Origin: an uncultured Kiritimatiellota bacterium
Lineage (GTDB): Bacteria; Verrucomicrobiota; Kiritimatiellia; RFP12; UBA1067
DNA: 64,000 nucleotides
Reading direction: 5' to 3'
Assembly (NCBI GenBank): GCA_934621385.1
Contig: CAKTUI010000008.1
Location: 2,455-66,454 of the forward strand
The notes below the pieces were generated by a model, which had not been told where the DNA came from, ran no database searches, and saw only the letters and a program-made list of their open reading frames with translations. This document shows positions 9,662 to 60,186 of this stretch, piece after piece. Each line of letters starts with the position of its first letter. Positions within the stretch are counted from its first letter, which is position 1. The position numbers were made by a program, and so were the translations under genes.

Positions 9662-9729
9662 CCTCGGAGATGCGCTTCTCTCAGCCACCCGCCCAAAACC
9701 GCCGCGCCTGAGCCTACGCAACCAAATTG

Positions 9730-9863
9730 TCAATGCGGGCGAACAGAGGTCATGTTCCAGCCGCCGACCTTCCACGCGAACGGACGCGTGGGATGCTCAA
9801 CCGTCAGCACCTTCCTTTCGTCCAGGAGAAATGTAAAGAAATTGTCCGAGAGGAAATCCGGTT
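9730..9863 (-). pseudogene. Relic 3' end of a GH2 gene (diverged duplicate of 11464-11597)
   Basis: The minus strand translates to ...FLSDNFFTFLLDERKVLTVEHPTRPFAWKVGGWNMTSVRPH*. The intact GH2 C-terminus reads FFSDNYFALLPGERKVLTVEHPTHPFAWKVGGWNTAFVHPL*. By my hand alignment, 111 of 134 nt are identical. Confidence 0.7.
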
Positions 9864-11224: not shown

Positions 11225-11410
11225 ACCGCCGCGACTGAGCCTTCACAACCTCTATGCTCTCTCGACTTTCAGCAGACCCATTTTCACCACACAAAACGCG
11301 GCAAACCAAGGCTCCCCTTTTACCATATCCAACAATCATGCATAATCTTTCCTACCTGCGACTCAAACGAGTCCCAACTTCAACTCTCAATAGTTCCAGT
11401 TAGAAAAATA
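11225..11410 (-). repeat. Partial, diverged copy (R4) of the promoter-leader repeat family seen at 38091-38712 and 58912-59325
   Basis: It shares the aaaccgccgcg...gccttcacaac hairpin block and the tcccaact..aactc..agtt block. It lies 54 nt from the GH2 stop. Confidence 0.35.
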
Positions 11411-11463
11411 CGATATGCAAGATGAAATGCCCCACGCAATGCCACCAACAATCAGACGACTTG

Positions 11464-14034
11464 TCAAAGTGGGTGGACGAAGGCCGTGTTCCAGCCGCCG
11501 ACCTTCCAGGCGAACGGGTGCGTGGGATGCTCGACCGTCAGCACCTTCCTTTCGCCCGGCAGAAGCGCAAAGTAATTGTCCGAGAAGAAGACCGGTCGCA
11601 GGCTCTTCCCCCTTTCGTCCTCAACCCGAACCTCGACCATGAAGGCCAGGGCGCGCCCCGTATTGACGACCTCAAGCGTCGTACACCCTTCCTCTACCTT
11701 CAAGAAGTGTGCCGACAATTCCGTTTGCGGCAGTTCATCCAGCCGTTCAAAACCCGCCACGCAGGGACCCGTCACTGTATTCACCCCCTCGTAGCGCGAA
11801 GCCGACCGCCAGTAGAATGTTGAGGCGATCTCCGTCCCATTCTCGCGCAGGCGCAACTTGATGAAATGCGGACGGTCAAACTGAAGTGTGCGGTCCGAAT
11901 CAAACGGAATCCGAAAGGCATCCACAAACGATTCGCCGCGAACCTCAAGCACCTGCGACCGCATCCAGACGCGACGCGAGTCAAAGTCGTAGACTTCAGC
12001 CACCAACTCAACGCACCGCGTCTCACAAATGTCACTGGCAACCGAAACACGATTGGACAGGTACTCGTACTGCGCGTGCAACGGCTCAAGCGCATTGGCC
12101 TGAGCGAATTGCGAGGCCGTGGGAACAAGCGAATAGTCCCAGGCGTGTCCGCCCAGCTGGGGAACAGGCGACGCATTGTACCAAAAGAGAACGCCTGTCG
12201 CCGTCTCACGGACGCGATTCCAGGTCTCCCAGAGACAACGGTGCGCCAGTGCATCTGCCGCCTGCGACTTTCGGGCGTACTCGTCAAAGGTCTTCGACAC
12301 ACCATATCCGTTGACGTACTGGTGATGGAACTCTGTCATCCGATCAAAACCGCCGCCCTCACGATACTTCCACGCGGCAATGTTCCTCTCAACCGGCCAA
12401 AGGAGATTCTCGGGCATAAACTCCCGGCAACACTCGGCGGGCGGCAGGGCGCATGTTCCGTATTCGGGACTGAACCCGTAAACGCGGCTTCCTCGCGGCG
12501 ATGCGGTATCTTCATAATAACTCATCGGATTCACCGGGACATACGGGGAACCGTCGTGCACCCCATCGCATTCGGACTGCATCATCCAGCTTGTCGTCCC
12601 CGTCAGCCGACGCACGAGCTCCTCTGTTCCCTCGACTTCCGTCGACTCGTTGGACGCGACCCAATGCGCAAGACTCGCATGGGAGCGAATGCGCTTGACC
12701 TGCTGTGCCACATTGTCGAGGTAAAGCCCGACATCATCTGGATGCCGCGTGTCACCGGTCATCCAGAACTCCTGCCAGACGAGCAGTCCGTATTCGTCGC
12801 ACAGTTCGTAGAATCGGTCGCTCTCCACGATGCCGCCAGCCCAAAGCCGCACGAGATTAACACCCGAGTCCGCCGTCAGCCGCATCTCCGCCTCCATCCG
12901 CTCATCGTCCGCCTTGAGCATCGCCTCTGGCACCCAGTTCGTGCCGCGAATGAATATCTTGCGTCGATTGACATAGAACTGCCGCGCTCCGTCCTTGCCC
13001 GACTGGTCGCTCGTTATCTCGCGCACACCAAAGCGGACGCGCACCGCATCCGACTCCCGGCCCGTCGTATCATCCACATAACGGACAGTTGCCGTGTAGA
13101 GCGGTTGTGCACCCTTGTTTCTCGGCCACCAGAGTTTCGGTGCCTTCATCTTGGCAGACATGAACTCGGTGCGCCGTTCACCCCGAAACATCGAAACCGG
13201 CTTCTCAATCCGAATGCCCTCGCCCTCAACCTCAGCAATGATCCGCCCGCGCACCTCGTCCCCCCACCCGTTGCTCGCATTGTGCAAGTCGACTTCAACC
13301 GTCAGTTCGGCTTCCGAAAAGTCGTCGTTCAACTTTGTTCGGACATAAGGCGCGTCAAGGCGCACAAGATCCGTTGCAAAGAACTCGATATCCCGCCAAA
13401 TGCCCGTATTGCGATCGCGGATGCCGTCGCTGAACATGAAGTCCCATCCGGCGGACATCAGCATCGTCACGTTCCGCCCGATTTCCCCATCGCCCCCATT
13501 GTGCCACTCCCCGTTTGCCGCGCCCCATGTCTTCGGCTGCACCGTTCCCGGGTGGTCAACGGGCCAAACCTTCACACGAATCTCGTTCCGCGTACCCGGT
13601 TGCACAAACGAAGTGACATCGACAGCCGTGCGCGAGAACATCCCACGCGTGGACGCGGCAAGTCGTCCATTGAGGTAAATCTCACTGCGGTAGTTGATAC
13701 CCTCGGGCCGCATCCAGACGACGCGATTGCTGAACGCTATCGGCAGATCGACCCCACCGACGAATGTCGCCTCATAGAATGGGCGATTCGCCGAGAGGTC
13801 TGGTATCAGCCCATTCTCAAGCTTGTTGTTGAGACCGTAGTAGGGATCGGGGACCTTGCCGTTCTCGACCAGCGTCCGCAGGACGGTCCCTGGGACAATT
13901 GCCGGCATCCACGCATCGGGTGCCGTCGCCTGCGCCATCTTCCACGGGCCTGTCGCCCGCACCGTCGTCCGTTCCCCCGCCAACCCGAGTGCCGCGCCCA
14001 GGACAAGTGCCGCGCAAATCGTCAGTCGCCTCAT
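11464..14034 (-). CDS. Glycoside hydrolase family 2 protein (beta-mannosidase / exo-glucosaminidase-like), secreted
   Basis: 856 aa. Signal peptide MRRLTICAALVLGAALGLAG. Candidate acid/base region WVASNES and nucleophile region SPEYG in a TIM-barrel context. Confidence 0.8.
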   Translation of the reverse strand: MRRLTICAALVLGAALGLAGERTTVRATGPWKMAQATAPDAWMPAIVPGTVLRTLVENGKVPDPYYGLNNKLENGLIPDLSANRPFYEATFVGGVDLPIAFSNRVVWMRPEGINYRSEIYLNGRLAASTRGMFSRTAVDVTSFVQPGTRNEIRVKVWPVDHPGTVQPKTWGAANGEWHNGGDGEIGRNVTMLMSAGWDFMFSDGIRDRNTGIWRDIEFFATDLVRLDAPYVRTKLNDDFSEAELTVEVDLHNASNGWGDEVRGRIIAEVEGEGIRIEKPVSMFRGERRTEFMSAKMKAPKLWWPRNKGAQPLYTATVRYVDDTTGRESDAVRVRFGVREITSDQSGKDGARQFYVNRRKIFIRGTNWVPEAMLKADDERMEAEMRLTADSGVNLVRLWAGGIVESDRFYELCDEYGLLVWQEFWMTGDTRHPDDVGLYLDNVAQQVKRIRSHASLAHWVASNESTEVEGTEELVRRLTGTTSWMMQSECDGVHDGSPYVPVNPMSYYEDTASPRGSRVYGFSPEYGTCALPPAECCREFMPENLLWPVERNIAAWKYREGGGFDRMTEFHHQYVNGYGVSKTFDEYARKSQAADALAHRCLWETWNRVRETATGVLFWYNASPVPQLGGHAWDYSLVPTASQFAQANALEPLHAQYEYLSNRVSVASDICETRCVELVAEVYDFDSRRVWMRSQVLEVRGESFVDAFRIPFDSDRTLQFDRPHFIKLRLRENGTEIASTFYWRSASRYEGVNTVTGPCVAGFERLDELPQTELSAHFLKVEEGCTTLEVVNTGRALAFMVEVRVEDERGKSLRPVFFSDNYFALLPGERKVLTVEHPTHPFAWKVGGWNTAFVHPL

Positions 14035-19466: not shown

Positions 19467-19744
19467 GACGCTTGCTCGGGGGCTTGCGCGGCGGCTCGCC
19501 CGACCCGGATGCGGCAGCGGTCTCGCAACGCCTCGCGCGCTTAGACAAGCGGCTTCGCTGAGCCTGCCCTGCCTCGGCGGTTATCACTGGTTGCGGACGG
19601 AGACCTCTCCTACGGCTGCGAGCCGCACCGCACCTCTCGTGCGACCGCCGCGCTCACCCCTTCGCCCGAGAGGAGGGACAGGCTGGTACACAGGCCCACG
19701 CGGCAGATGGTTTTGCCGCGCCTGCCGTCTATCTGGCGCTTACA

Positions 19745-19945
19745 GAAGTCCTACTTGCAACTCTTGCGCGTTCGAACTGCAACTCGAAAGAGTTCTAAGT
19801 AGAAAACCACCCAGCGGCATGGCGAAACAAACTGCCGCGCCTGTTCACAATCTGTAATGACCAAGGGGAACATTTCCATTGTTCGCCTGCCCCGCTCCTC
19901 AATCGGACCCGAATTTCTTCCACGCCCTGTAAAGCGCGGCACTTT
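19745..19945 (+). repeat. Diverged, inverted copy (R3) of the repeat family
   Basis: The reverse complement carries aaagtgccgcgc ... ggtcat ... cttagaact ... gagttgcaagt in the same order as R1 and R2. It lies upstream of the plus-strand porin gene. Confidence 0.35.
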
Positions 19946-37603: not shown

Positions 37604-38149
37604 TTACCAATCCCACCTTTTTGGCCGCGCCCATTTCTCTCTAGGGGCATAACGCGCCGCATGGGGCAAGGCAATCCCGCCAAGGAGGTTGTTCAATTCC
37701 ACAAGTTCAATCGCATCCGGTTCTGCTCCATAACCGCACAGAGACTGATGCGACAGTGCAAATGCCGTAGCTAATACATGAAACATTTTATCATCAATGC
37801 TTAGGCGATCGTGCGCAACCAGTTCGGAGACCGTCATGACTTGCGAGAACCTATATTTGCAATTCTTGTTTGCACTTTCAACGGGCAGTCTTAAGCGATG
37901 GAAAATACTTCCACCACCAGAATAACAAATCGGTCTACCATCTAGTATCTGTTCACACAAGTTCATAAACGGCATAACGCGTATCAAGTCTTGATTCTCA
38001 TATTGCCCTCTCAGAATAGACATAAGATTATCAGCGTCCCCAAATGAGAAATGGAAAAGGGCACTGCGGCGGAAGTTGATTCCGTCGGCACAAAAGCCTT
38101 GATTTGAACGCGGACTGTTACTGGGGGGGGGGGGGTATTTTTTGCACAC
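37604..38149 (-). CDS. Hypothetical protein (181 codons as tracked); 5' end runs through a C13 tract
   Basis: A long ORF in an AT-rich segment with no recognised motifs. The tracked start is a GTG immediately before the homopolymer, so the true start and frame are uncertain. Confidence 0.4.
   Translation of the reverse strand: MCKKYPPPPSNSPRSNQGFCADGINFRRSALFHFSFGDADNLMSILRGQYENQDLIRVMPFMNLCEQILDGRPICYSGGGSIFHRLRLPVESANKNCKYRFSQVMTVSELVAHDRLSIDDKMFHVLATAFALSHQSLCGYGAEPDAIELVELNNLLGGIALPHAARYAPREKWARPKRWDW
38123..38135. repeat. Homopolymer G13 (C13 on the coding strand)
   Basis: Counted directly from the sequence. Confidence 0.95.
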
Positions 38150-38232
38150 AAGCCCGCCAACGCAAGATTTTGCGCCGCTACGCCCTCAACTGGACAAGCC
38201 ACAACTAAGCCCGACCCCACATCTCGTCCAAT

Positions 38233-38241
38233 AGTTTACCA
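38233..38241 (-). promoter_or_regulatory. Extended -10-like element TGGTAAACT inside R1
   Basis: Plus-strand agtttacca, conserved in R2. It parallels the TGGTATAAT promoters elsewhere in the window. Confidence 0.35.
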
Positions 38242-38362
38242 TAATCCACTTCCCCTGTGCGCAACAAAAGGCGCAGAAACTGCACATATAATGAGTCAGC
38301 AAGAAACGGAAAGACCGCTGGTGTTTCGCAGAAAGTGCCGCGCACGCGTCAGATTGTCGGGG

Positions 38363-38443
38363 GATGCGCATCTCCCGACCTTTGGGTTGCGCAAGTCGAC
38401 ATCCTTAGGTTGCGCAACCTAACACCCCCGGGATGCGCATCCC
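38363..38443. promoter_or_regulatory. Array of four TGCGCA-centred palindromes spaced 20-24 bp apart
   Basis: GATGCGCATC (38363-38372), TTGCGCAA (38387-38394), AGGTTGCGCAACCT (38407-38420), GGGATGCGCATCCC (38430-38443). Confidence 0.45.
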
Positions 38444-38715
38444 CCGCCCCTCCCCTTCGCCTTCGAAGGACGCATGGTCGTCTTTTGCCCTATCACCCAA
38501 ACCAACCGGGAAAACAAGCCATTATCAGTCAAATGCAAAGTGCCGCGCCTTCACAACGCATGCGCGGCGGTTTGAGACTTGGAACAAACGGTCATCTCGC
38601 GCCCAAAGCGGGAGGTGGCCGATGCGCAACCTGGAACTTCATGCCGTCCTAACTGGAACTCGTGCGAGTTGCAAGTCCAACTCCCAAAAGTCCCACGCTC
38701 AGAAGTGCCGCGAAC

Positions 38716-40041
38716 TCACTTGCCGACGCAGAAATGCGAGAACAGCGAATCCAACAGGTCGCTCGAATAAGTCGCCCCAATGAGGCGACCCAGTGTTTCC
38801 GCACACGAACGAACCGCATTCGCCAACAGCACAAGGTCGTCCCCAAGACTTTCTGTCCCTACCAGCGCGGCAGATGCGGACTGCAAAAGCGACATTTCAC
38901 GCTCACTCGTGCTGACAAGTCCATCTGTTGCACCACCGGCAAGCGATTCCAGTCGTCCCACAATCGCTCGCTTCAGCTTCTCAAGCCCCTCCCCCGTCAC
39001 AGAACTGACGCGGAGTGCCGCGCTCGCATCCTCGTGCGGATGCAAATCACACTTGGAACTGATTCGCAGAACCTTTTCCCTATCCAAAACCGCCGCTCCC
39101 GAACCGTGTGTAGCCGCCTCCGCCATCTCCGAATCCGAAAGAAGAAGGACGATGTCCGCACGCGCAACGAGTGCCTCGGCCCGCTTCACGCCCTCGGCTT
39201 CGATGTCATCCCCCGTTTCACGCAGGCCCGCCGTGTCCACGAGGCGGATGGGCCATCCGTCGAGGTCGAGTCCCTCCTCAATTGAATCACGCGTTGTGCC
39301 CGGGGTTGACGAGACAATGGCGCGGCAGTCACCCAAGAGCGCATTCATGAGGGAACTCTTGCCCGCATTCGGCGGACCGGCCAAGACCACCAACGCACCT
39401 TCCCGCAGCAGGCGACCTCCACGAGCCCCTTTCTGCGCGTCGGCAATGGCGCGGGTCAGCGCCCCTGCCTCACGCCTCACGCCGTCCCAAAAATCCGTCG
39501 GCAGTTCCTCCTCCGAGATGTCGAGGGCGTGTTCAAGTGTCGTCGAAAGTGAGAGTGCTCGGTCGTAAAGGACGCGGTATTCCGTCCGCTTGGCACCATT
39601 CAGCCGCGCCAGCGCATCATCCGCCGCACGGTCGGTCTTCGCATCGACGAGTTCAATGACGCTTTCGGCCTCCGACAGGTCAAGTTTCCCATTGAGGAAG
39701 GCTCGTTCGGTAAATTCGCCGCGCCGCGCCAGTCGTGCCCCCGCTGCGAAACAGGCCTCCAAAATGCGCTGCGGCGTCACGCTTCCACCATGGCACTGGA
39801 ATTCGACGACATCCTCTCCCGTATAGGAATGAGGGCTACGAAAGGCGAGAACGACAGCCGAATCGAGCAGATGACCCGCCGAATCGTGCAACGCGGCATA
39901 GGCGATACGCCCGGGTGTCGGGGGCCGCCCGGAGAGCGCCCGCGCGACCTCAAAAGCCTCGGGACCGCTCACCCGAACAACGGCAATGCCACCGCGCCCA
40001 GGCGCAGTGGCAATTGCCGCGATTGTTCGAATCTCGTCCAT
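38716..40041 (-). CDS. mnmE: tRNA modification GTPase MnmE
   Basis: 441 aa. [21 protein letters not shown]-terminus, G-domain [10 protein letters not shown] / DTAGLR, and the C-terminal CVGK motif. Confidence 0.9.
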
Positions 40042-54633: not shown

Positions 54634-56910
54634 CTATACATTGAACAAGGCTATGACGTTAGCGGGAGTCTTGTCATCGGCGAGACGAACAAGCTCCAGG
54701 TCGTGTGTAGTGGTAAACGTAACGAAATCTGGATTTGTCCGTGAAAGCCCATTCAGGAGCGCCTCCATTTCGTCGCGCGCGAGCGCAAATATCTGCGCCG
54801 GGCTAACCCCCTCCGCCTCAACCGTGAAGTCCATAAGGCGTGAGAGAGGAAACTCCCAATATCCGCCACACTTTTCAGCGAACTTGTAGAGCGCATAAAG
54901 CATGACAAGCGGCGACGGCGCAACCGTCTTCGTTCGAGTGAGCGAAACGATGTCCTGTCCCTTTGATACGACCCGACCAAAGTGGAAGCGCGTACTTAGC
55001 GGTATGTTGCACAGCCTTCCGAATGCGCGAATAACCGACATCACCCCATCTGGCTTAAGCCCAGTGACAGCTATCATGTCGTATAGTTCCTGACGGGGGT
55101 ATTCGCGCCCCACATCCATATTCCGCACATACCATTCGATTTGTGGATTGTCATATGAGAGGTTGGTGAGAATCAAACCCCATGTATCCTCTGCGTTCAT
55201 GCCTATCCGCCTTGCTAATTCAAAGAATGGAGTTGCCTTATTCTTTGCAAGCAGTCCGGCATCTGAAAGGAAGCGTTTAAATTTAGTTATCTGCATAGGC
55301 CCCAGCGAGTTGTTTGACACAAAGTCAGAACCTCGGGAAAAGAAATCCGTGACCCATTCTGGCTTCGGGGCGTGCGTAGCGAATGTGTTTATGCTTTTCA
55401 TGTCTATTCTCTCCAGTGTTGCCTTCTTAAGTGAATCGGCTCGATAGCAGCCTTTCTCAATTTCATGGCATAGTCCGCAATGTATGCAATTGTCAATGTG
55501 TAGCCCATTCTTAAAAGAGAGCGCACCTGAACGACAATTCGCCTCACATTCACCGCATCCAACGCAATATGATGCCTTATAAAAACATTGTTTGAGCCTC
55601 CTACCAAGAGAGGTCTTCGTGAGTGCGGACGGATACGATACTATCAGCACACCATCTGATTCTGTGGCTTCTAAATCAACAGGTCCATTTAGTGTCTTGA
55701 TCCATTCTCGCCAGTCTGTTGTTGGATTAAGAAGGCGAAGTGTCGTACGGCCATCTTTGGTTGCTTCTTGTATCTTCTCTTCGTTACCCTTAATGTCCCT
55801 GCCGTTCTTTCGAGCGACCCATCCACATTTCGCAATATATTCATTTGTGTCAGGGCAACTAATGCTACTCTTTACGTAATTAATAAATCGGTCAACGCCA
55901 TCCTTATAGGCAGTATGCTCAAAATAATCAGAACGGCCACCTGCACCGAGGGGACAAAAAAGACACCCTACGCGCACCATTCCCTTTACATAGGCACCGT
56001 TAATGAGTAATTGACGCGAGAAAATATAAATCCAAACCTCTGCGCTTGACCATTCCTGCATCGCATTGAAGGAGTATTGCCCCATCTGTTTCTTACTAAA
56101 ATTCAGATAGTCATACTGTGAGCGAGCATCACTCTCATGTCCTCTCACTCCAACAAAAGCCATTCCCGTATAGTCTCTTTTCCCGAGTATCTCGCGGATT
56201 TTGAGCGTCTGAGGGACGGACTTATGGACGGTACAGCACCATCTAAGAGCATGTGATGGCGGTCCGAAGAGCCGCCACGATTCCTCTGGCGTAAAACAGG
56301 ACTTTGCACGGTAAAACGCGATACCATCCGCCTTGCATCTCGCTTCCACAGCCTCAACGGCTTTATAGGTGTCAGGGAATTCCATCCCCGTATCGCCAAA
56401 CACAACCATGAATGCGGTGCGGGGCAATGCGCGACGGACGAGTTCCAGAAGCGCAATCGAATCTTTGCCGCCCGAAAACGCCACATGGAAACAATCAAGC
56501 TTCTTTTCGTATTTGCGATAGATGTCGTATATCTTCTTGACGGTGAGCGTTTCCAGCGCCTCAATACGGAGACGGTTTTTTGCGATCATCGCCTCAACAT
56601 CCACGGGGATGAGTGTTGTTCCCTTTGGAAGTATCTCTTTGCCGGCCTCGTCCCTCAAGAGTTCAATTTCTGGTTTTACATAGAGGGAGCCGCCATTCGT
56701 CTTGGCTACCTTTTGACCGCGATACCAATAAAAATTCGACTCGGCCCAGAGGTACGGGGCGTCACTCGTGTTGTCATATTTCCAGAAATCTCCAAACCCC
56801 AACAAGTCGAGTTCTGCCGCCCATACTGGTCTGGGTTCTTTTGAGAATTCCGAAAGCGAATCCGCAAGTAGCAGGCCTCCTGTTTCTGGATCATGTGAAT
56901 ATGTGTACAT
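54634..56910 (-). CDS. brxP: BrxP-like PAPS-reductase / PP-loop ATP pyrophosphatase with an Fe-S cluster region and a ~250-aa C-terminal domain
   Basis: PP-loop AFSGGKDSIALLEL. PAPS-reductase-family body. Ferredoxin-like CVGCGECEANC...CIHCGLCHEIEKGC. The real start MYTYSHDPETGG at 56910 overlaps the upstream stop (TAATG). Confidence 0.8.
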   Translation of the reverse strand: MYTYSHDPETGGLLLADSLSEFSKEPRPVWAAELDLLGFGDFWKYDNTSDAPYLWAESNFYWYRGQKVAKTNGGSLYVKPEIELLRDEAGKEILPKGTTLIPVDVEAMIAKNRLRIEALETLTVKKIYDIYRKYEKKLDCFHVAFSGGKDSIALLELVRRALPRTAFMVVFGDTGMEFPDTYKAVEAVEARCKADGIAFYRAKSCFTPEESWRLFGPPSHALRWCCTVHKSVPQTLKIREILGKRDYTGMAFVGVRGHESDARSQYDYLNFSKKQMGQYSFNAMQEWSSAEVWIYIFSRQLLINGAYVKGMVRVGCLFCPLGAGGRSDYFEHTAYKDGVDRFINYVKSSISCPDTNEYIAKCGWVARKNGRDIKGNEEKIQEATKDGRTTLRLLNPTTDWREWIKTLNGPVDLEATESDGVLIVSYPSALTKTSLGRRLKQCFYKASYCVGCGECEANCRSGALSFKNGLHIDNCIHCGLCHEIEKGCYRADSLKKATLERIDMKSINTFATHAPKPEWVTDFFSRGSDFVSNNSLGPMQITKFKRFLSDAGLLAKNKATPFFELARRIGMNAEDTWGLILTNLSYDNPQIEWYVRNMDVGREYPRQELYDMIAVTGLKPDGVMSVIRAFGRLCNIPLSTRFHFGRVVSKGQDIVSLTRTKTVAPSPLVMLYALYKFAEKCGGYWEFPLSRLMDFTVEAEGVSPAQIFALARDEMEALLNGLSRTNPDFVTFTTTHDLELVRLADDKTPANVIALFNV

Positions 56911-58817
56911 TAGCGTTTCTCCAATTCTTTCATTCTGGAAACTACCGCCCCGACGGTTTTTGTCGAGCGACGCAGAACACATTGCGTCGCAACGAGAAAG
57001 TCTCCAACTTCTTCCACATCTGCCGCGACACCGCAACGAAGAGCTATGGTAGCAAAGGCATCCTCCGCGCTCCATTCGCAGTTCATGCACGGAACGACTG
57101 CACCCGATACATCTCTTGCAGGAACAGACGGTGACACAAGGCGAAATCCTGTGCTGGCTCGACGCAAAAACGCCTCAAGCAGAAACTCATTCCAAGCGAA
57201 CCCAGGAACCGCAGGAAAGTCCGCCAGATTGCCAAATGCACCGAAAGGCATTATGCATCCTTCACATATGTCCGAAATTGATTTTTCAATCGACGAAACA
57301 TCAAATGTGATCAGCGCCGGCGAAACAAAACATTCCCGGTCGACACGCACCATTTCTTCATGTGCGGTCTTCAGTGCTAACCACGGTGCAATGTTGTATT
57401 CTTTTGCGACTGTCTCTAGTTGTTCAAGCGACACATCAGGCCTTTCGCGCAAGAATGCATGAAGAGGAATCTGTCCATCTATACTTGCACCTTTTGCACA
57501 TACGATCTGCCCGTGAATGTCGAATTGCTCTGATAAAAAACGCTGGAAGAATGAGCGTCGAAGCGCACTATCCACCAACCTTCGGTCGTTCATGGCTGCG
57601 CTGTCATTGAGACACAATTGAGAAAGGGAGAAAAATCCCTCGGCTTTGATTGCGGTTTCACATTGCGATTTCCCGCGAGAGACCTCCGCATCATCGAATT
57701 CGATCCGTGATACGATGGCATACGAATTCTTACCGTTCCTGACCAAATCGCTCAACCTCCTACACAGACTACGAATAAACGCCATGTCCACATAGGGCAC
57801 TCGCTTAGAAACCACACTTATGTCAATAACAGGACCCCTTTGTGACATGATAATTGAATTAAAGTGCTGAGTAATCGACCCCGCCCACTTGGGCACGAAG
57901 CATTCCCCTTCAATCTGATATGTATCTTGCGCCTCCCGCATAATTGCCTCTCGAAACATTTCGGGAGAGATGATGCCAATTTGCATAAGTTCTTGTCCAT
58001 GGAACTCCATCAGGCGCGAAAACTGAAATATGGAGTATCCTTGTCCGACAAGTCTTTCGATAAGCTTACGCCACCCGCCATCTTTGGATGATGGCCGAGG
58101 AAACACTTTCCCGTCGTGAATAACGCCTATTCTCGGAAAGACAGAATTGAAGTCAAAGTCCTTCGGCAAATCCTCGTCGAAATACTCGTGGTAAAACTTG
58201 CGGATTTTATTACGGTCGATTATCGAACTGGGTCTGACTCCGTTTGGGAACTCCGACTCCAACAATTCAGCAATCTGATTTTCATAGGGGAATTCATTAC
58301 CATCCCAATCGCATCGCCCCGGCATCGCTTCCGTCCTTTCCTCTCCATCGGCCGAATGGGGCGGACATAGGAGACCTTCGCTTTCTTTCGCGTCACTTTT
58401 CTCCGCTGAACGAAAATCTCTGTATGTGACCCGGACATCATCGTTGGACAAATTGCACCACTCAATAAGCTTGAGGGCTCGCAAGAAAGGAGTGCTACCC
58501 GACCCATTCAAGTCGATGTAACAATCCCGATCAATCTGATAAGGGTTGGCCATCCCGTACCGCGTTGTCCGCAACCACCCCAGATCCTTGGTTCTGATGA
58601 GCCGCTGCAATTGCCACCCCTTGAAGGTCCACAGGTGCTTGGCAAGCGAAACGAGGACATCATTCGCAGAGTTCACCGGAACCGTCTTCCCGATGATTTG
58701 CAAAGCGCTCAGTTGCGCCCTTGGGGGCATTTTCTTCACTGCGTCAACCAGTGGGCAGATATAGGATAGGCCTGCTGTTGAACAGCCATTGGATTCCGAA
58801 AACTCACAATCAGGCAT
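56910..58817 (-). CDS. Hypothetical 635-aa protein, first gene of the BREX-like operon
   Basis: An uninterrupted ORF with RBS GGAGGA 10 nt upstream of the ATG. Its stop overlaps the brxP start. I recognise no catalytic or binding motif. Confidence 0.7.
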   Translation of the reverse strand: MPDCEFSESNGCSTAGLSYICPLVDAVKKMPPRAQLSALQIIGKTVPVNSANDVLVSLAKHLWTFKGWQLQRLIRTKDLGWLRTTRYGMANPYQIDRDCYIDLNGSGSTPFLRALKLIEWCNLSNDDVRVTYRDFRSAEKSDAKESEGLLCPPHSADGEERTEAMPGRCDWDGNEFPYENQIAELLESEFPNGVRPSSIIDRNKIRKFYHEYFDEDLPKDFDFNSVFPRIGVIHDGKVFPRPSSKDGGWRKLIERLVGQGYSIFQFSRLMEFHGQELMQIGIISPEMFREAIMREAQDTYQIEGECFVPKWAGSITQHFNSIIMSQRGPVIDISVVSKRVPYVDMAFIRSLCRRLSDLVRNGKNSYAIVSRIEFDDAEVSRGKSQCETAIKAEGFFSLSQLCLNDSAAMNDRRLVDSALRRSFFQRFLSEQFDIHGQIVCAKGASIDGQIPLHAFLRERPDVSLEQLETVAKEYNIAPWLALKTAHEEMVRVDRECFVSPALITFDVSSIEKSISDICEGCIMPFGAFGNLADFPAVPGFAWNEFLLEAFLRRASTGFRLVSPSVPARDVSGAVVPCMNCEWSAEDAFATIALRCGVAADVEEVGDFLVATQCVLRRSTKTVGAVVSRMKELEKR

Positions 58818-58944
58818 ACGCGCACAATCCTCCAGGACTCTTTACGCTACCCTCAGAAATAAACCGCCAAGACCCATCCCCAAGCCAAGGACAGGCCTGC
58901 ACCAAGCAAGCCAAAAGCCTTGATTTTGAGCGTGGGCTGTTACT

Positions 58945-58959
58945 GGGGGGGGGGGGGGG
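58945..58959. repeat. Homopolymer G15 (C15 on the operon strand) in the predicted 5' leader
   Basis: Counted directly. It lies 128 nt upstream of the ATG at 58817. Confidence 0.95.
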
Positions 58960-59057
58960 TATTTTGGGCACACAAGCTCACCAGCGCAAGATTTTGCGCC
59001 GTCACGCCCACAATTGGGCAAGTCGAAACTAAGCCCGACCCCATCATCTCGCCCAAT

Positions 59058-59066
59058 AGTTTACCA
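59058..59066 (-). promoter_or_regulatory. Extended -10-like element TGGTAAACT inside R2 (candidate operon promoter)
   Basis: Plus-strand agtttacca, conserved with R1. The implied leader is ~230 nt. Confidence 0.35.
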
Positions 59067-59323
59067 TAATTCACATCCCCTGTGCTCAACAAACGGCACA
59101 GAAATTGCAAAATAAAGCGAGTCGGCACAAAAGAAAAAGAGAACTGGCGATTCGCAGAAAGTGCCGCGCCTTCACAACGATTGCGCGGCGGTTTTTAAGA
59201 CCCAGAACGAATGGTCATTTCGTGTCCAAAGCGGAAAAGGTTTGCCAAGCAACTTAGAACTTCATTCCATCCCAACTGGAACTCGTGCGAGTTGCAAGTC
59301 CAACTCACAAAAGTTCCGTGTTC

Positions 59324-59418
59324 AAAATCCCCCTGCCTGACTTGCAATTTACCGCTCGCACCCTCTCCCAAGAAGAGGGTGCAGGCAGGGGCGCGGCGGA
59401 CGCAAACCGCCGCGCCCC
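59324..59418 (-). terminator. Nested GC-rich hairpins downstream of trpA, the outer one followed by a T run
   Basis: Hairpin 1 is GGGGCGCGGCGG/CCGCCGCGCCCC (59388-59418). Hairpin 2 is CACCCTCT/AGAGGGTG (59359-59381). The outer pair is CCCCTGCCTG/CAGGCAGGGG, followed by ATTTTG on the minus strand. Confidence 0.5.
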
Positions 59419-59427
59419 TTGGTTGGC

Positions 59428-60186
59428 TTAGTGTTTCGCCGCGAGGAAACGCTCGACCAGTGCACTGCCGATGACGAATCCGTCGCAGTGCGCGGCAATT
59501 TTCGCGCCCTCCTCCGGCGTGCGGATGCCGAATCCGGCCACGACAGGCACACGCGTCAGCGACTTAATTTCAGCCAACCGTGCAGCCAGTTCGGGCGGCA
59601 GATGCGCCCGCTGTCCTGTCACACCCTTCACTGTCACCGCATAGAGGAACGAGTCCTCCATTCCCTCGGCACTCGCCCGAATGCGTTCCGCACCCGTTGT
59701 TGGGGACAGGAGCGGCACAAGCGTCAGGCCCTGCGGACGCAACACGTCCAGCAATTCGCCGCGCTCCTCCAGCGGGAGGTCGACGACCAGCACGGCATCC
59801 ACGCCCACGCGGGCCGCTTCTGCCGCGAAGCGTTCAATTCCGTACTTGTAGATGGGGTTGTAGTAGGAGAAAATCACGAGCGGCGTATCGGGATGCCGCG
59901 CCCGGAGCGGCGGAATGCTCGCCAAGACATCCGCCAGCGTGACCCCATTCGCCAGTGCCAGATTCGCCGCCTTGCGAATGACGGCACCATCTGCCACCGG
60001 GTCTGAGAACGGAACGCCCAATTCGAGGATGTCCGCCCCTTCCGCAAGGAGCGTTTCCGCTGCGGCAAAACTGTCCGCCAGCGTCGGAGCCCCCATCGTG
60101 AGATAGGCGACGAACGCGCCGCGTCCTTCGGCATGGGTCTTTGCAAAGAGTTTCTGAATCCTGTTCATATCCGTTTGTCCTTTCAA
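59428..60186 (-). CDS. trpA: Tryptophan synthase alpha chain
   Basis: 252 aa with typical TrpA motifs (ELGVPFSDPVADG, GFGI). Confidence 0.9.
   Translation of the reverse strand: MKGQTDMNRIQKLFAKTHAEGRGAFVAYLTMGAPTLADSFAAAETLLAEGADILELGVPFSDPVADGAVIRKAANLALANGVTLADVLASIPPLRARHPDTPLVIFSYYNPIYKYGIERFAAEAARVGVDAVLVVDLPLEERGELLDVLRPQGLTLVPLLSPTTGAERIRASAEGMEDSFLYAVTVKGVTGQRAHLPPELAARLAEIKSLTRVPVVAGFGIRTPEEGAKIAAHCDGFVIGSALVERFLAAKH

Follow-up and report, generated by a model that had tools for sequence, protein, structure and literature searches.

Phase variation is textbook knowledge for a few pathogens, and the repeat almost always lies inside the regulated gene or its promoter; defence systems and lipopolysaccharide-type glycosyltransferases are classical phase-variable gene classes. 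The tracts of Bordetella fim and of Neisseria porA, opc, and fetA are located between promoter elements or activator sites and change their spacing. In Haemophilus influenzae, Griffin (2003) and Deadman (2009) are said to have found that lex2B expression depends on the frame of lex2A. The lex2 locus, in which a simple-sequence repeat lies in the short upstream open reading frame (uORF) lex2A and the enzyme is encoded by the next gene, lex2B (PMC3116884), has the nearest published layout that we found for the element described here. This element is a putative promoter-leader cassette of about 190 nucleotides (nt), present twice in the window, the whole 64,000-nt stretch that was analysed (G000:C8:2455-66454), from the metagenome-assembled genome (MAG) G000 of an uncultured Kiritimatiellota bacterium (2.32 Mb, 58.8% GC, 85% complete). 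The cassette has a run of C's inside a short leader open reading frame (ORF) that precedes an accessory (cargo) gene. In our best reading, to which we assign a probability of roughly 0.6, it would be a phase-variable frame gate, the inner ~190 nt acting as a heritable random ON/OFF (or three-state) switch.

The lex2 cargo is a lipooligosaccharide glycosyltransferase, the same gene class as the family-25 glycosyltransferase (GT25) behind the cassette copy at the C3 locus. Unlike the cassette, lex2 carries a tetranucleotide repeat (GCAA) at a single locus in another phylum, and has neither a portable unit with its own promoter nor a conserved immediate stop. In the intragenic poly-G/C contingency loci of Campylobacter jejuni, Neisseria, and Helicobacter, hypermutable G/C homopolymers also switch surface or defence genes by frameshift, but the tract is inside the regulated gene and the OFF state is a truncated protein. 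In the cassette, the tract occupies a leader ORF of its own, 100-320 nt upstream of the cargo ORF, which is intact, and one unit would serve a whole operon. That a BREX-family system can vary in phase is known from the G tract in pglX of the Streptomyces coelicolor Pgl/BREX-2 system (PMC4365076). Promoter-located poly-C/G tracts of the fim and porA type share with the cassette a position upstream of the gene in the promoter-leader region; the cassette tract, however, lies about 95-110 nt downstream of the -10, inside an ORF rather than in a promoter spacer. Attenuation at E. coli pyrBI, rph-pyrE, tnaC, and speFL is similar to the proposed gate in that a ribosome reaching a downstream signal decides read-through. 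The accidental frameshift rph-1, which stops translation early, reportedly lowers pyrE. Such systems sense metabolites or are accidents, whereas here a hypermutable tract would set heritable stochastic states. In a review that also covers uORF-dependent Rho termination, E. coli fimS and the Clostridioides difficile flgB switch are described as heritable 5′-leader switches acting via premature termination of the leader transcript (PMC12360218); unlike the cassette, they are driven by recombinase-mediated inversion and not by uORF slippage. Literature searches on phase variation, uORFs and leader peptides, translational coupling, BREX, lex2, and rph-pyrE yielded no description of a repeated portable homopolymer-uORF gate.

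The minus strand of the window, on which all relevant genes lie, is called the gene strand below; the poly-C there is poly-G on the plus strand. A preliminary description of the window had pointed to two blocks, R2 (58912-59325) and R1 (38091-38712), as direct repeats of roughly 80% identity. Their alignment in direct orientation is real: 340 of the aligned columns match and 64 do not (84% identity). The R1/R2 block is composite and modular, and only the inner ~190 nt recurs as a unit. Its key feature is a homopolymer inside both copies (G13 at 38123-38135, G15 at 58945-58959), which that description lacked; it connected the repeat neither to a poly-G/C tract nor to a leader ORF. By blastn, the inner unit was found at four sites in the MAG, R1, R2, G000:C2:88871-89090, and G000:C3:85473-85661, whereas a search with the core against the 60 nearest relatives gave no copies, just short matches to the poly-C flank. 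A fifth copy (G189:C35) is present behind trpA in the sister species G189 (JBNMKZ01), whose TrpA is 99% identical to that of G000, and is followed by yet another cargo, a coiled-coil membrane protein of 250 amino acids (aa). These copies are called type A. On the gene strand, the unit extends from TTTTGTTG(A/C)GCACAGGGGA… to …CAAATCAAGGCTTTT and contains, in order, TGGTAAACT, ATGATG 10 nt further on, ~85 nt with an GCGCAAaatcTTGCGC hairpin, AAAATA, the C run, and the invariant AGTAACAG. The run is read as poly-proline, is directly followed by an invariant AGTAAC, and has 15 C's in R2 (C15), 13 in R1 (C13), 15 in the copy at C2, and 19 in that at C3. The 5′ boundary of the cassette abuts different DNA in different strains; at the GT25 locus, for example, the DNA 5′ of the unit differs while the unit is kept. 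That the unit is a portable promoter-leader element with a hypermutable poly-C tract is, in our view, very probable. The idea of a portable promoter-leader cassette in the preliminary description is supported for the inner half (~58901-59100 and ~38091-38290); in the outer half, two hairpins, U1 and U2, belong to the resident flank. The features of the two cassettes in the window are as follows.

58901..59100, minus strand: R2 core cassette (putative promoter, leader ORF, poly-C, AGTAAC, up to AAGGCTTTT), the region common to all four copies and G189:C35
59058..59066, minus strand: extended -10 TGGTAAACT of R2, invariant in type-A copies, with a presumed promoter function
58940..59047, minus strand: R2 leader ORF, ATGATG start, 35 codons (MMGSGLVSTCPIVGVTAQNLALVSLCAQNTPPPPQ), ending as assembled (short frame) at the TAA of C-AG-TAA, from frame bookkeeping
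58945..58959, minus strand: R2 poly-C, C15 (G15 on the plus strand), read from the sequence
58810..58817, minus strand: ATGCCTGA, in which the ATG of the BREX leader gene (58815-58817) is overlapped by the TGA of long frame 0 (58810-58812), from frame bookkeeping
56910..58817, minus strand: R2 cargo, 635-aa first gene of a putative BREX type 4 operon, without a match in a Pfam scan
38091..38290, minus strand: R1 core cassette, from the four-copy comparison
38233..38241, minus strand: extended -10 TGGTAAACT of R1, from the four-copy alignment
38123..38135, minus strand: R1 poly-C, C13, read from the sequence, with the TAA of C-AG-TAA at 38118-38120
38011..38220, minus strand: R1 leader frame from GTG 38220, the long frame with C13, ending at TGA 38011-38013, 10 nt past the cargo ATG at 38021-38023, from frame bookkeeping
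37604..38023, minus strand: R1 cargo, 139-aa ORF from ATG, without a Pfam match (ORF and Pfam scan)

The 181-codon ORF of the preliminary description is the 139-aa ORF of R1 fused in frame 0 through the tract to the GTG. A two-hexamer promoter scan of the R2 leader gave no -35/-10 pair and none that spans the tract. A second promoter, TTGCGC-N17-CAAAAT, that would fire into the tract and allow reiterative transcription was considered and rejected, as it is not conserved in type B and was not found by the scan.

The unit belongs to a wider family. The pattern C≥12-AGTAA occurs at five loci in G000 and six in G189, and at none in the 219 other genomes of the family (221 in total), while the reversed-pattern control gave one match, in one other genome. 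Together with a variant, C15-AATAA at G000:C1:85108, there are 12 loci that share a plan of TGnTAnAnT, a gap of 95-110 nt, and the tract. The extra loci that follow this plan and are much diverged are called type B. In diverged members, the extended -10, 95-110 nt upstream of the tract, reads TGATATAAT, TGGTATACT, or TGATACAAT. A start motif, ATGGAGT(C/T)G, is conserved across the diverged subfamilies, and in type B and at G000:C1 it is followed by a GCGC-type hairpin whose changes between loci compensate each other, a stretch rich in A/T, the tract, and A(G/A)TAA. The genes behind the type-B loci and the G000:C1 variant encode an SPFH/zinc-ribbon protein, a lipoprotein, and small proteins of membrane or coiled-coil type.

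Reading frames were determined by scripted bookkeeping over all 12 loci, with post-tract frames 0, 1, and 2 and the positions of stops and starts counted from the tract end. The leader ORF starts ~85 nt before the tract and reads it as prolines. Frame 1 (C-AG-TAA) reaches a TAA at +2 in 12/12 loci. Frame 0 stops early, at +6 to +15, in four of the five type-B loci; at the C6 locus, this early stop is made by different codons, TGG-TAA in G000 and TGA in the G189 ortholog. One long frame is open for 100-320 nt. It is usually frame 2 (CCA-GUA-AC) and is frame 0 in R2 and C2, and its end relative to the cargo start is listed below.

G000:C6 and its G189 ortholog (G189:C74): long-frame stop +172, ATG +171, ATGA
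G189:C63: long-frame stop +253, ATG +252, ATGA
C3 (GT25): long-frame stop +142, TTG +141, TTGA
G189:C4: long-frame stop +226, ATG +228, TGATG
G189:C35: long-frame stop +154, ATG +149, ATGAATGA
R1: long-frame stop +109, ATG +99, overlapping
R2 and C2 (frame 0): long-frame stop +132, ATG +127, ATGCCTGA
G189:C28: long-frame stop +319, ATG +328, ends in the Shine-Dalgarno sequence
G000:C1: long-frame stop +124, ATG +141, TAG inside the Shine-Dalgarno sequence
G189:C87: long-frame stop +177, ATG +208, 31 nt short of the start

The stop of the long frame, and of the long frame only, overlaps or abuts the cargo start in 8 of the 10 locus groups, an arrangement expected for translational coupling. Frame 2 stops 24 nt short of the cargo ATG both in R2, where its TAA is at 58842-58844, and in C2. 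Within the long-frame stretch, two 1-nt indels that compensate each other distinguish R2 from C2. Compared with R2, the C3 copy lacks one A and has four additional C's, and because these length changes compensate, both uORFs end at the TAA. After dinucleotide shuffling of the intervening DNA, the share of trials with some frame ending no more than 12 nt from the start was 9-64%, depending on the locus, and the product over seven loci was 5e-5; this result is significant but not overwhelming. Purifying selection on the leader peptide was considered and rejected: a synonymous run in WRISARN at two type-B loci coincides with the compensatory changes of the hairpin, and type-A peptides diverge freely.

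The tract varies in length among natural relatives. The GT25 protein is unchanged in 78 blocks of the public collection, and seven contigs that encode the identical protein and reach the tract have C13, C14, C14, C17, C17, C19, and at least C21, with A5 or A6 just before the tract; the remaining cassette is nearly identical. Five further contigs of this locus are interrupted at or inside the tract; contigs that begin in it or right behind it number three. When the length variants are translated, the uORF has 36 aa with a stop at +2, 65-66 aa with one at +93, or 81 aa, in which case its TGA overlaps the TTG start. Since the variants fall in three frames, all three states exist in natural populations. 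At the orthologous C6 locus, the tract is C14 in G000 and C17 in G189. These observations have the form expected of a contingency locus: the tract length differs among otherwise identical sequences, and the tract is inside the leader ORF and not in the cargo ORF.

From this architecture, the following sequence of events is proposed for the frame gate. Transcription would start from the extended -10 TGGTAAACT, and the first feature of the transcript would be the short leader ORF, starting at ATGATGG or ATGGAGTCG. About 85 nt into this ORF, ribosomes would read a run of 13-21 C's as poly-proline, and bases added or dropped by replication slippage would set the frame in which they leave the tract. 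The long frame would be the ON state: ribosomes would be delivered to the cargo start by translational coupling, and the leader RNA would be covered so that premature termination is prevented. Inside the long frame, a hairpin with a T-run that resembles a terminator was found by scan at G000:C6, and by eye at the G189:C74 ortholog and G000:C1, and at these three loci ribosomes would pass over it; in type-A copies, Rho polarity alone is proposed. In the short frames, ribosomes would come off at the tract or shortly past it, an untranslated leader of 100-300 nt would be exposed to terminator formation or Rho, and the cargo (BREX-4 operons, the GT25 operon, and others) would be low or off. The poly-proline stretch and the poly-C RNA could add inputs from elongation factor P (EF-P) and Rho to the gate; the MAG contains both rho and efp, which makes the scheme feasible.

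Several points weigh against this switch. Tract lengths were taken from short-read assemblies, in which homopolymer lengths are subject to error, and slippage of RNA polymerase on such long runs could blur the DNA-encoded state. Eight of the nine complete loci are assembled in a short frame; R2, C2, and C3 are in the immediate-stop frame, and R1 is, from its GTG, in the long one. R1 has a 1-nt deletion (GAGATG-TGGGG), by which the frame from ATG (38222->38205) stops after five codons, so that only GTG 38220 opens the family frame; as the ATG frame is lost, this copy may be damaged or locked. The Shine-Dalgarno sequence of the uORF is weak at best, the 5′ untranslated region of type-A copies is very short, and the uORF peptide is not conserved, the changes between R2 and C3 being mostly non-synonymous. 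The cargo genes themselves are preceded by strong Shine-Dalgarno sequences (GGAGG, GAGGAGG), which would permit independent translation unless transcription stops or the site is masked. At G189:C87 and G000:C1, the long frame does not overlap the start and falls short of it by 31 and 17 nt, respectively. The shuffle statistic is modest (0.09-0.64 per locus), and the loci are partly homologous and so partly dependent. Finally, a scan found no intrinsic terminator in the R2 leader.

An alternative is that the leader acts by non-heritable leader-peptide attenuation. In that case, the poly-proline uORF (…PPPPQ-stop) would arrest ribosomes or sense EF-P or prolyl-tRNA, or the naked poly-C would be a loading site for Rho; the cargo would be regulated physiologically or be silent, and length changes would be incidental. 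As assembled, eight of the nine complete loci end 2-15 nt after the tract, the TAA is invariant, and the C3 copy keeps the short frame by compensating length changes. Poly(C) is a strong activator of Rho, and rho and efp are both present in the MAG. Attenuation by Rho that depends on a uORF is well known, for example from tnaC, speFL, and cruR (PMC12360218). This reading, however, gives no reason why a second frame is free of stops over 100-320 nt and, at most loci, runs up to the start codon of the cargo, or why natural variants occupy all three frames. We consider attenuation unlikely as the explanation of the cassette, and it is compatible with the frame gate as an added layer.

The same frame architecture would fit equally well with an expression rheostat, in which slippage of RNA polymerase on 13-21 C's gives a mixture of three frames from each template and hence a fixed low translation of the cargo with no heritable switch. 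The tracts are longer than those of classical contingency loci, and RNA polymerase is known to slip on long homopolymers, mainly of A/T. Against this, the tract length differs between assemblies at the DNA level, and poly-G/C tracts of 8-13 nt are DNA-level ON/OFF switches in Campylobacter and Neisseria (PMC5084427, PMC8437040). A rheostat in place of a heritable switch appears quite improbable.

A structured non-coding leader RNA, riboswitch-like or protein-binding, would hold the poly-C in the loop of a 12-bp helix, and the ORF features would then be due to chance. RNAalifold on nine type-A sequences predicted four helices, one of which closes the loop that holds the tract; 35 pairs were 98% paired, two pairs had compensatory changes (U-A/C-G), and 6-9 of 500 shuffles scored as high. 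One-sided changes were G-U wobbles, valid on the gene strand only. Against this, the folding energy of the leader is ordinary (z = +0.78 for R2, -0.94 for the C6 locus), type-B and C1 members lack the tract-flanking helix, and the structure was derived from the very sequences compared, which are closely related. The left arm of helix 1 is so near the -10 that it is possibly not transcribed. Rfam 15 gave no match in the window at the gathering score, and a search of 58750-59450 at a relaxed E-value gave chance-level matches only (E ≥ 0.12), none thus reaching E ≤ 0.1. Such an RNA is very improbable as the explanation; RNA structure is possibly an accessory feature.

Poly-C modules outside the two species were also looked for. 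A scan of JGI metagenomes for C12-AGTAAC(A/G)G gave 27 matches, none of them related. Scanning the genome collection with a degenerate tract-flank pattern returned the sister-species copy and a different module, GGGCTTTGTATGCATCAAATA-Cn, in sheep/rumen MAGs. There the tract is in the 5′ coding region of a secreted sugar-isomerase-like gene, and the module is homologous to the cassette over ~45 nt only; from its position, it would be classical in-gene phase variation. A related GGGCTTTGTATGCATCAAATA-Cn-TC(A/G)CAGCTT module was seen in the sheep/rumen Kiritimatiellae MAG loci L018, L019, and L020, of which L019 (NZ_CALEFV010000257) is binned as Fibrobacter. The L019 module abuts an apparently truncated aminotransferase gene, and the same fragment, TGCAAGGGCGCGAAAACGTG, accompanies the module in L018 and L020.

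In the window, both copies of the repeat block directly follow minus-strand core genes, trpA for R2 and mnmE for R1, and low-GC genes on the same strand lie behind both (48.9% for the BREX operon at R2, 47.0% for the small ORF at R1, against ~62% for trpA and mnmE), as had been described. The sub-blocks that had been named are present as well: TGGTAAACT, GCGCAA-aatc-TTGCGC, GCCGCGC-N13-GCGCGGC, and AACTC/GAGTTG/CAACTC. The last three segments, for which alternative hairpins had been suggested, form instead one long imperfect hairpin, U1 (z = -4.4). R1 carries one extra insert, of 205 nt rather than the 195 given before. The features of the outer half and its flank, and the cargos behind trpA, are listed here; for the latter, we compared public assemblies with identical TrpA (loci L081-L089; human gut, including Hadza samples).

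59270..59326, no strand: U1 of R2, long imperfect hairpin GGAACTTTTGTGAGTTG-GACTTG-CAACTCGCACGAGTTCC, z = -4.4
59163..59189, no strand: U2 of R2, GCCGCGC-N13-GCGCGGC hairpin flanked by an A-run and a T-run, bidirectional-terminator-like, z = -3.5 (plus strand) and -1.7 (minus strand)
59355..59420, minus strand: two hairpins directly after the trpA stop, terminator region, read from the sequence
59428..60168, minus strand: trpA, 246 aa from ATG, PF00290 on the identical protein in other assemblies
38716..40041, minus strand: mnmE, the gene before R1
38332..38536, no strand: REP-like palindromic insert of CGGGGGATGCGCATC...TTGCGCAA units, a separate repeat family
38542..38568, no strand: U2 hairpin of R1, from sequence and repeat comparison
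38643..38708, no strand: U1 hairpin of R1, z = -4.1
trpA-flank cargo in this MAG: putative BREX-4
trpA-flank cargo: restriction-modification system of a Dam-like methyltransferase and an N6/N4 methyltransferase, with its own putative TGATATAAT promoter and without the poly-C cassette
trpA-flank cargo: 86-aa gene and DUF4143, with an upstream cassette copy that has a decayed tract (C5)
trpA-flank cargo: one further variant

U1 lies directly behind trpA in 5/5 arrangements and U2 in 4/5. In G189, the order is trpA, U1, U2, the REP-like element, the core cassette with C15, and the 250-aa coiled-coil membrane protein. Since U1 and U2 stay by trpA while the cargo changes, they mark a cargo-exchange hotspot and do not travel with the cargo; the placement of the repeat at a core/accessory junction is in this respect borne out. 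U1 and U2 would accordingly be hairpins of the conserved flank outside the switch, the core cassette an expression platform before the cargo, and the trpA flank, judged from its gene content, a defence-island hotspot. In G000, U1 is a small palindromic repeat family with about 8-10 weak genomic copies (nhmmer, on contigs C28, C61, C27, C13, C5, and C19). The insert of R1, which lies between U2 and the cassette, belongs to a REP-like family of CGGGGGATGCGCATCCCCCG and GGTTGCGCAACC units with matches on more than 20 contigs, including G000:C2:88700-88810; such elements adjoin the C2, G189, and L082 copies too. Both U1 and the 205-nt insert resemble REP/BIME and Correia-type repeats, being short, palindromic, intergenic, and present in many copies; these elements adjoin the cassette, whereas the core unit has no terminal inverted repeats.

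The least probable reading, that the block is the terminus of a mobile or integrating element (similar to a miniature inverted-repeat transposable element or Correia element, or an attachment site) that brought the cargo, would fit its place at core/accessory junctions, the at least four alternative cargos at the trpA-downstream site in other strains, the U1 palindrome of the kind bound by recombinases, and the related poly-C module abutting a truncated aminotransferase gene in the foreign contig L019, but the two ends of the core unit, TTTTGTTG… and …AAGGCTTTT, do not form inverted repeats, the four-copy alignment contains no duplicated flank, no U1, U2, or core copy is present at the far end of the BREX island (~43.7 kb), U1 and U2 remain with trpA when the cargo changes and so are flank, and no transposase or integrase was noted beside the four copies, for which no systematic search was made. 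As no inverted termini, target-site duplications, or far-end U1 were found, the conserved end of a family of integrating elements, the other possibility raised in the preliminary description, is not supported.

Two weaker copies had also been proposed, and neither belongs to the family. At R3 (11225-11410), there is only a marginal U1-like match to the outer-half profile (11347-11399, E = 0.023), and at R4 (19745-19945), only a weak U1-like hairpin (19697-19814, E = 5.6e-4, 63% identity); blastn found neither. The R4 profile match is on the same strand, with an opposite-strand match too, because the sequence is palindromic. Beside the R3 region, a 136-nt direct repeat of 84% identity was observed at 9727-9862 and 11461-11596, 1.7 kb apart. 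Elsewhere in the window, five copies of a 54-nt segment with 65-78% identity (repeat family D1) lie between 26132 and 30544 and look like the conserved N-terminal parts of a row of minus-strand prepilin-type genes.

The genes behind the other type-A copies in the MAG are of several kinds. The C2 cassette precedes what has the appearance of a second BREX-4-like operon (G000:C2:89164-97003), which encodes a 971-aa paralog of the 635-aa leader protein of R2, a 782-aa PAPS-reductase/4Fe-4S (BrxP-like) protein, and a large ATPase-like protein (854 aa or more) that carries the P-loop GAYGTGKS and may be BrxC-like. A 300-aa ORF, putatively RhuM-like as judged from its sequence, lies ~1.3 kb upstream of this operon. 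The GT25 behind C3 (229 aa, TTG start) heads a polysaccharide cluster. In exact-protein look-ups in the public collection, the 635-aa BREX leader, the cargo of R1, and the gene that lies upstream of C2 had no record, and the C6 and C1 cargos had only records resembling the MAG's own sample.

Similar homopolymers are found elsewhere in the G000 genome, which has 34 poly-G/C runs of at least 9 nt against seven poly-A/T runs. Several poly-G/C runs lie within the 5′ end of a very large ORF or close to it; these ORFs have 700-940 aa or more, and some encode paralogs with autotransporter-like beta-strand repeats. Examples are at C22:18184, C32:29579, C50:2172, C12:43634, C18:42893, and C4:84457. This looks like a genome-wide repertoire of contingency loci. 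C10-C12 runs also abut the -35 box of near-consensus promoters at G000:C4:73507-73516, C39:12062-12071, and C40:444-455, in the forms …C10-TTGCAA-N17-TGGTACAAT and C12-TCTCTC-TTGACA-N18-TATAAT, and would represent a different, promoter-type use of the same kind of tract.

If the leader-ORF frame gate works as proposed, it would be a compact natural design for stochastic expression. It also has practical consequences, as assemblies break at the tracts, gene callers ignore the leader ORF, and the ON/OFF state of a defence system in metagenomes is unreadable from the cargo gene alone. The genes under the cassettes include two putative BREX-4 operons, the GT25 glycosyltransferase, an SPFH protein, and lipoproteins. 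We see even odds that a transplantable frame-gate module has spread to at least 12 loci in one gut Kiritimatiellae lineage and switches whole operons stochastically without damage to the cargo genes, and a switch resident at a hotspot such as the trpA flank could receive new cargo behind it. If true, this would be a separate, copyable switch that gates any downstream gene or operon via the frame of a leader ORF, and it would explain how a commensal gut lineage hedges its bets on costly phage defence (BREX-4) and surface-glycan genes, with cargo exchange behind the switch.

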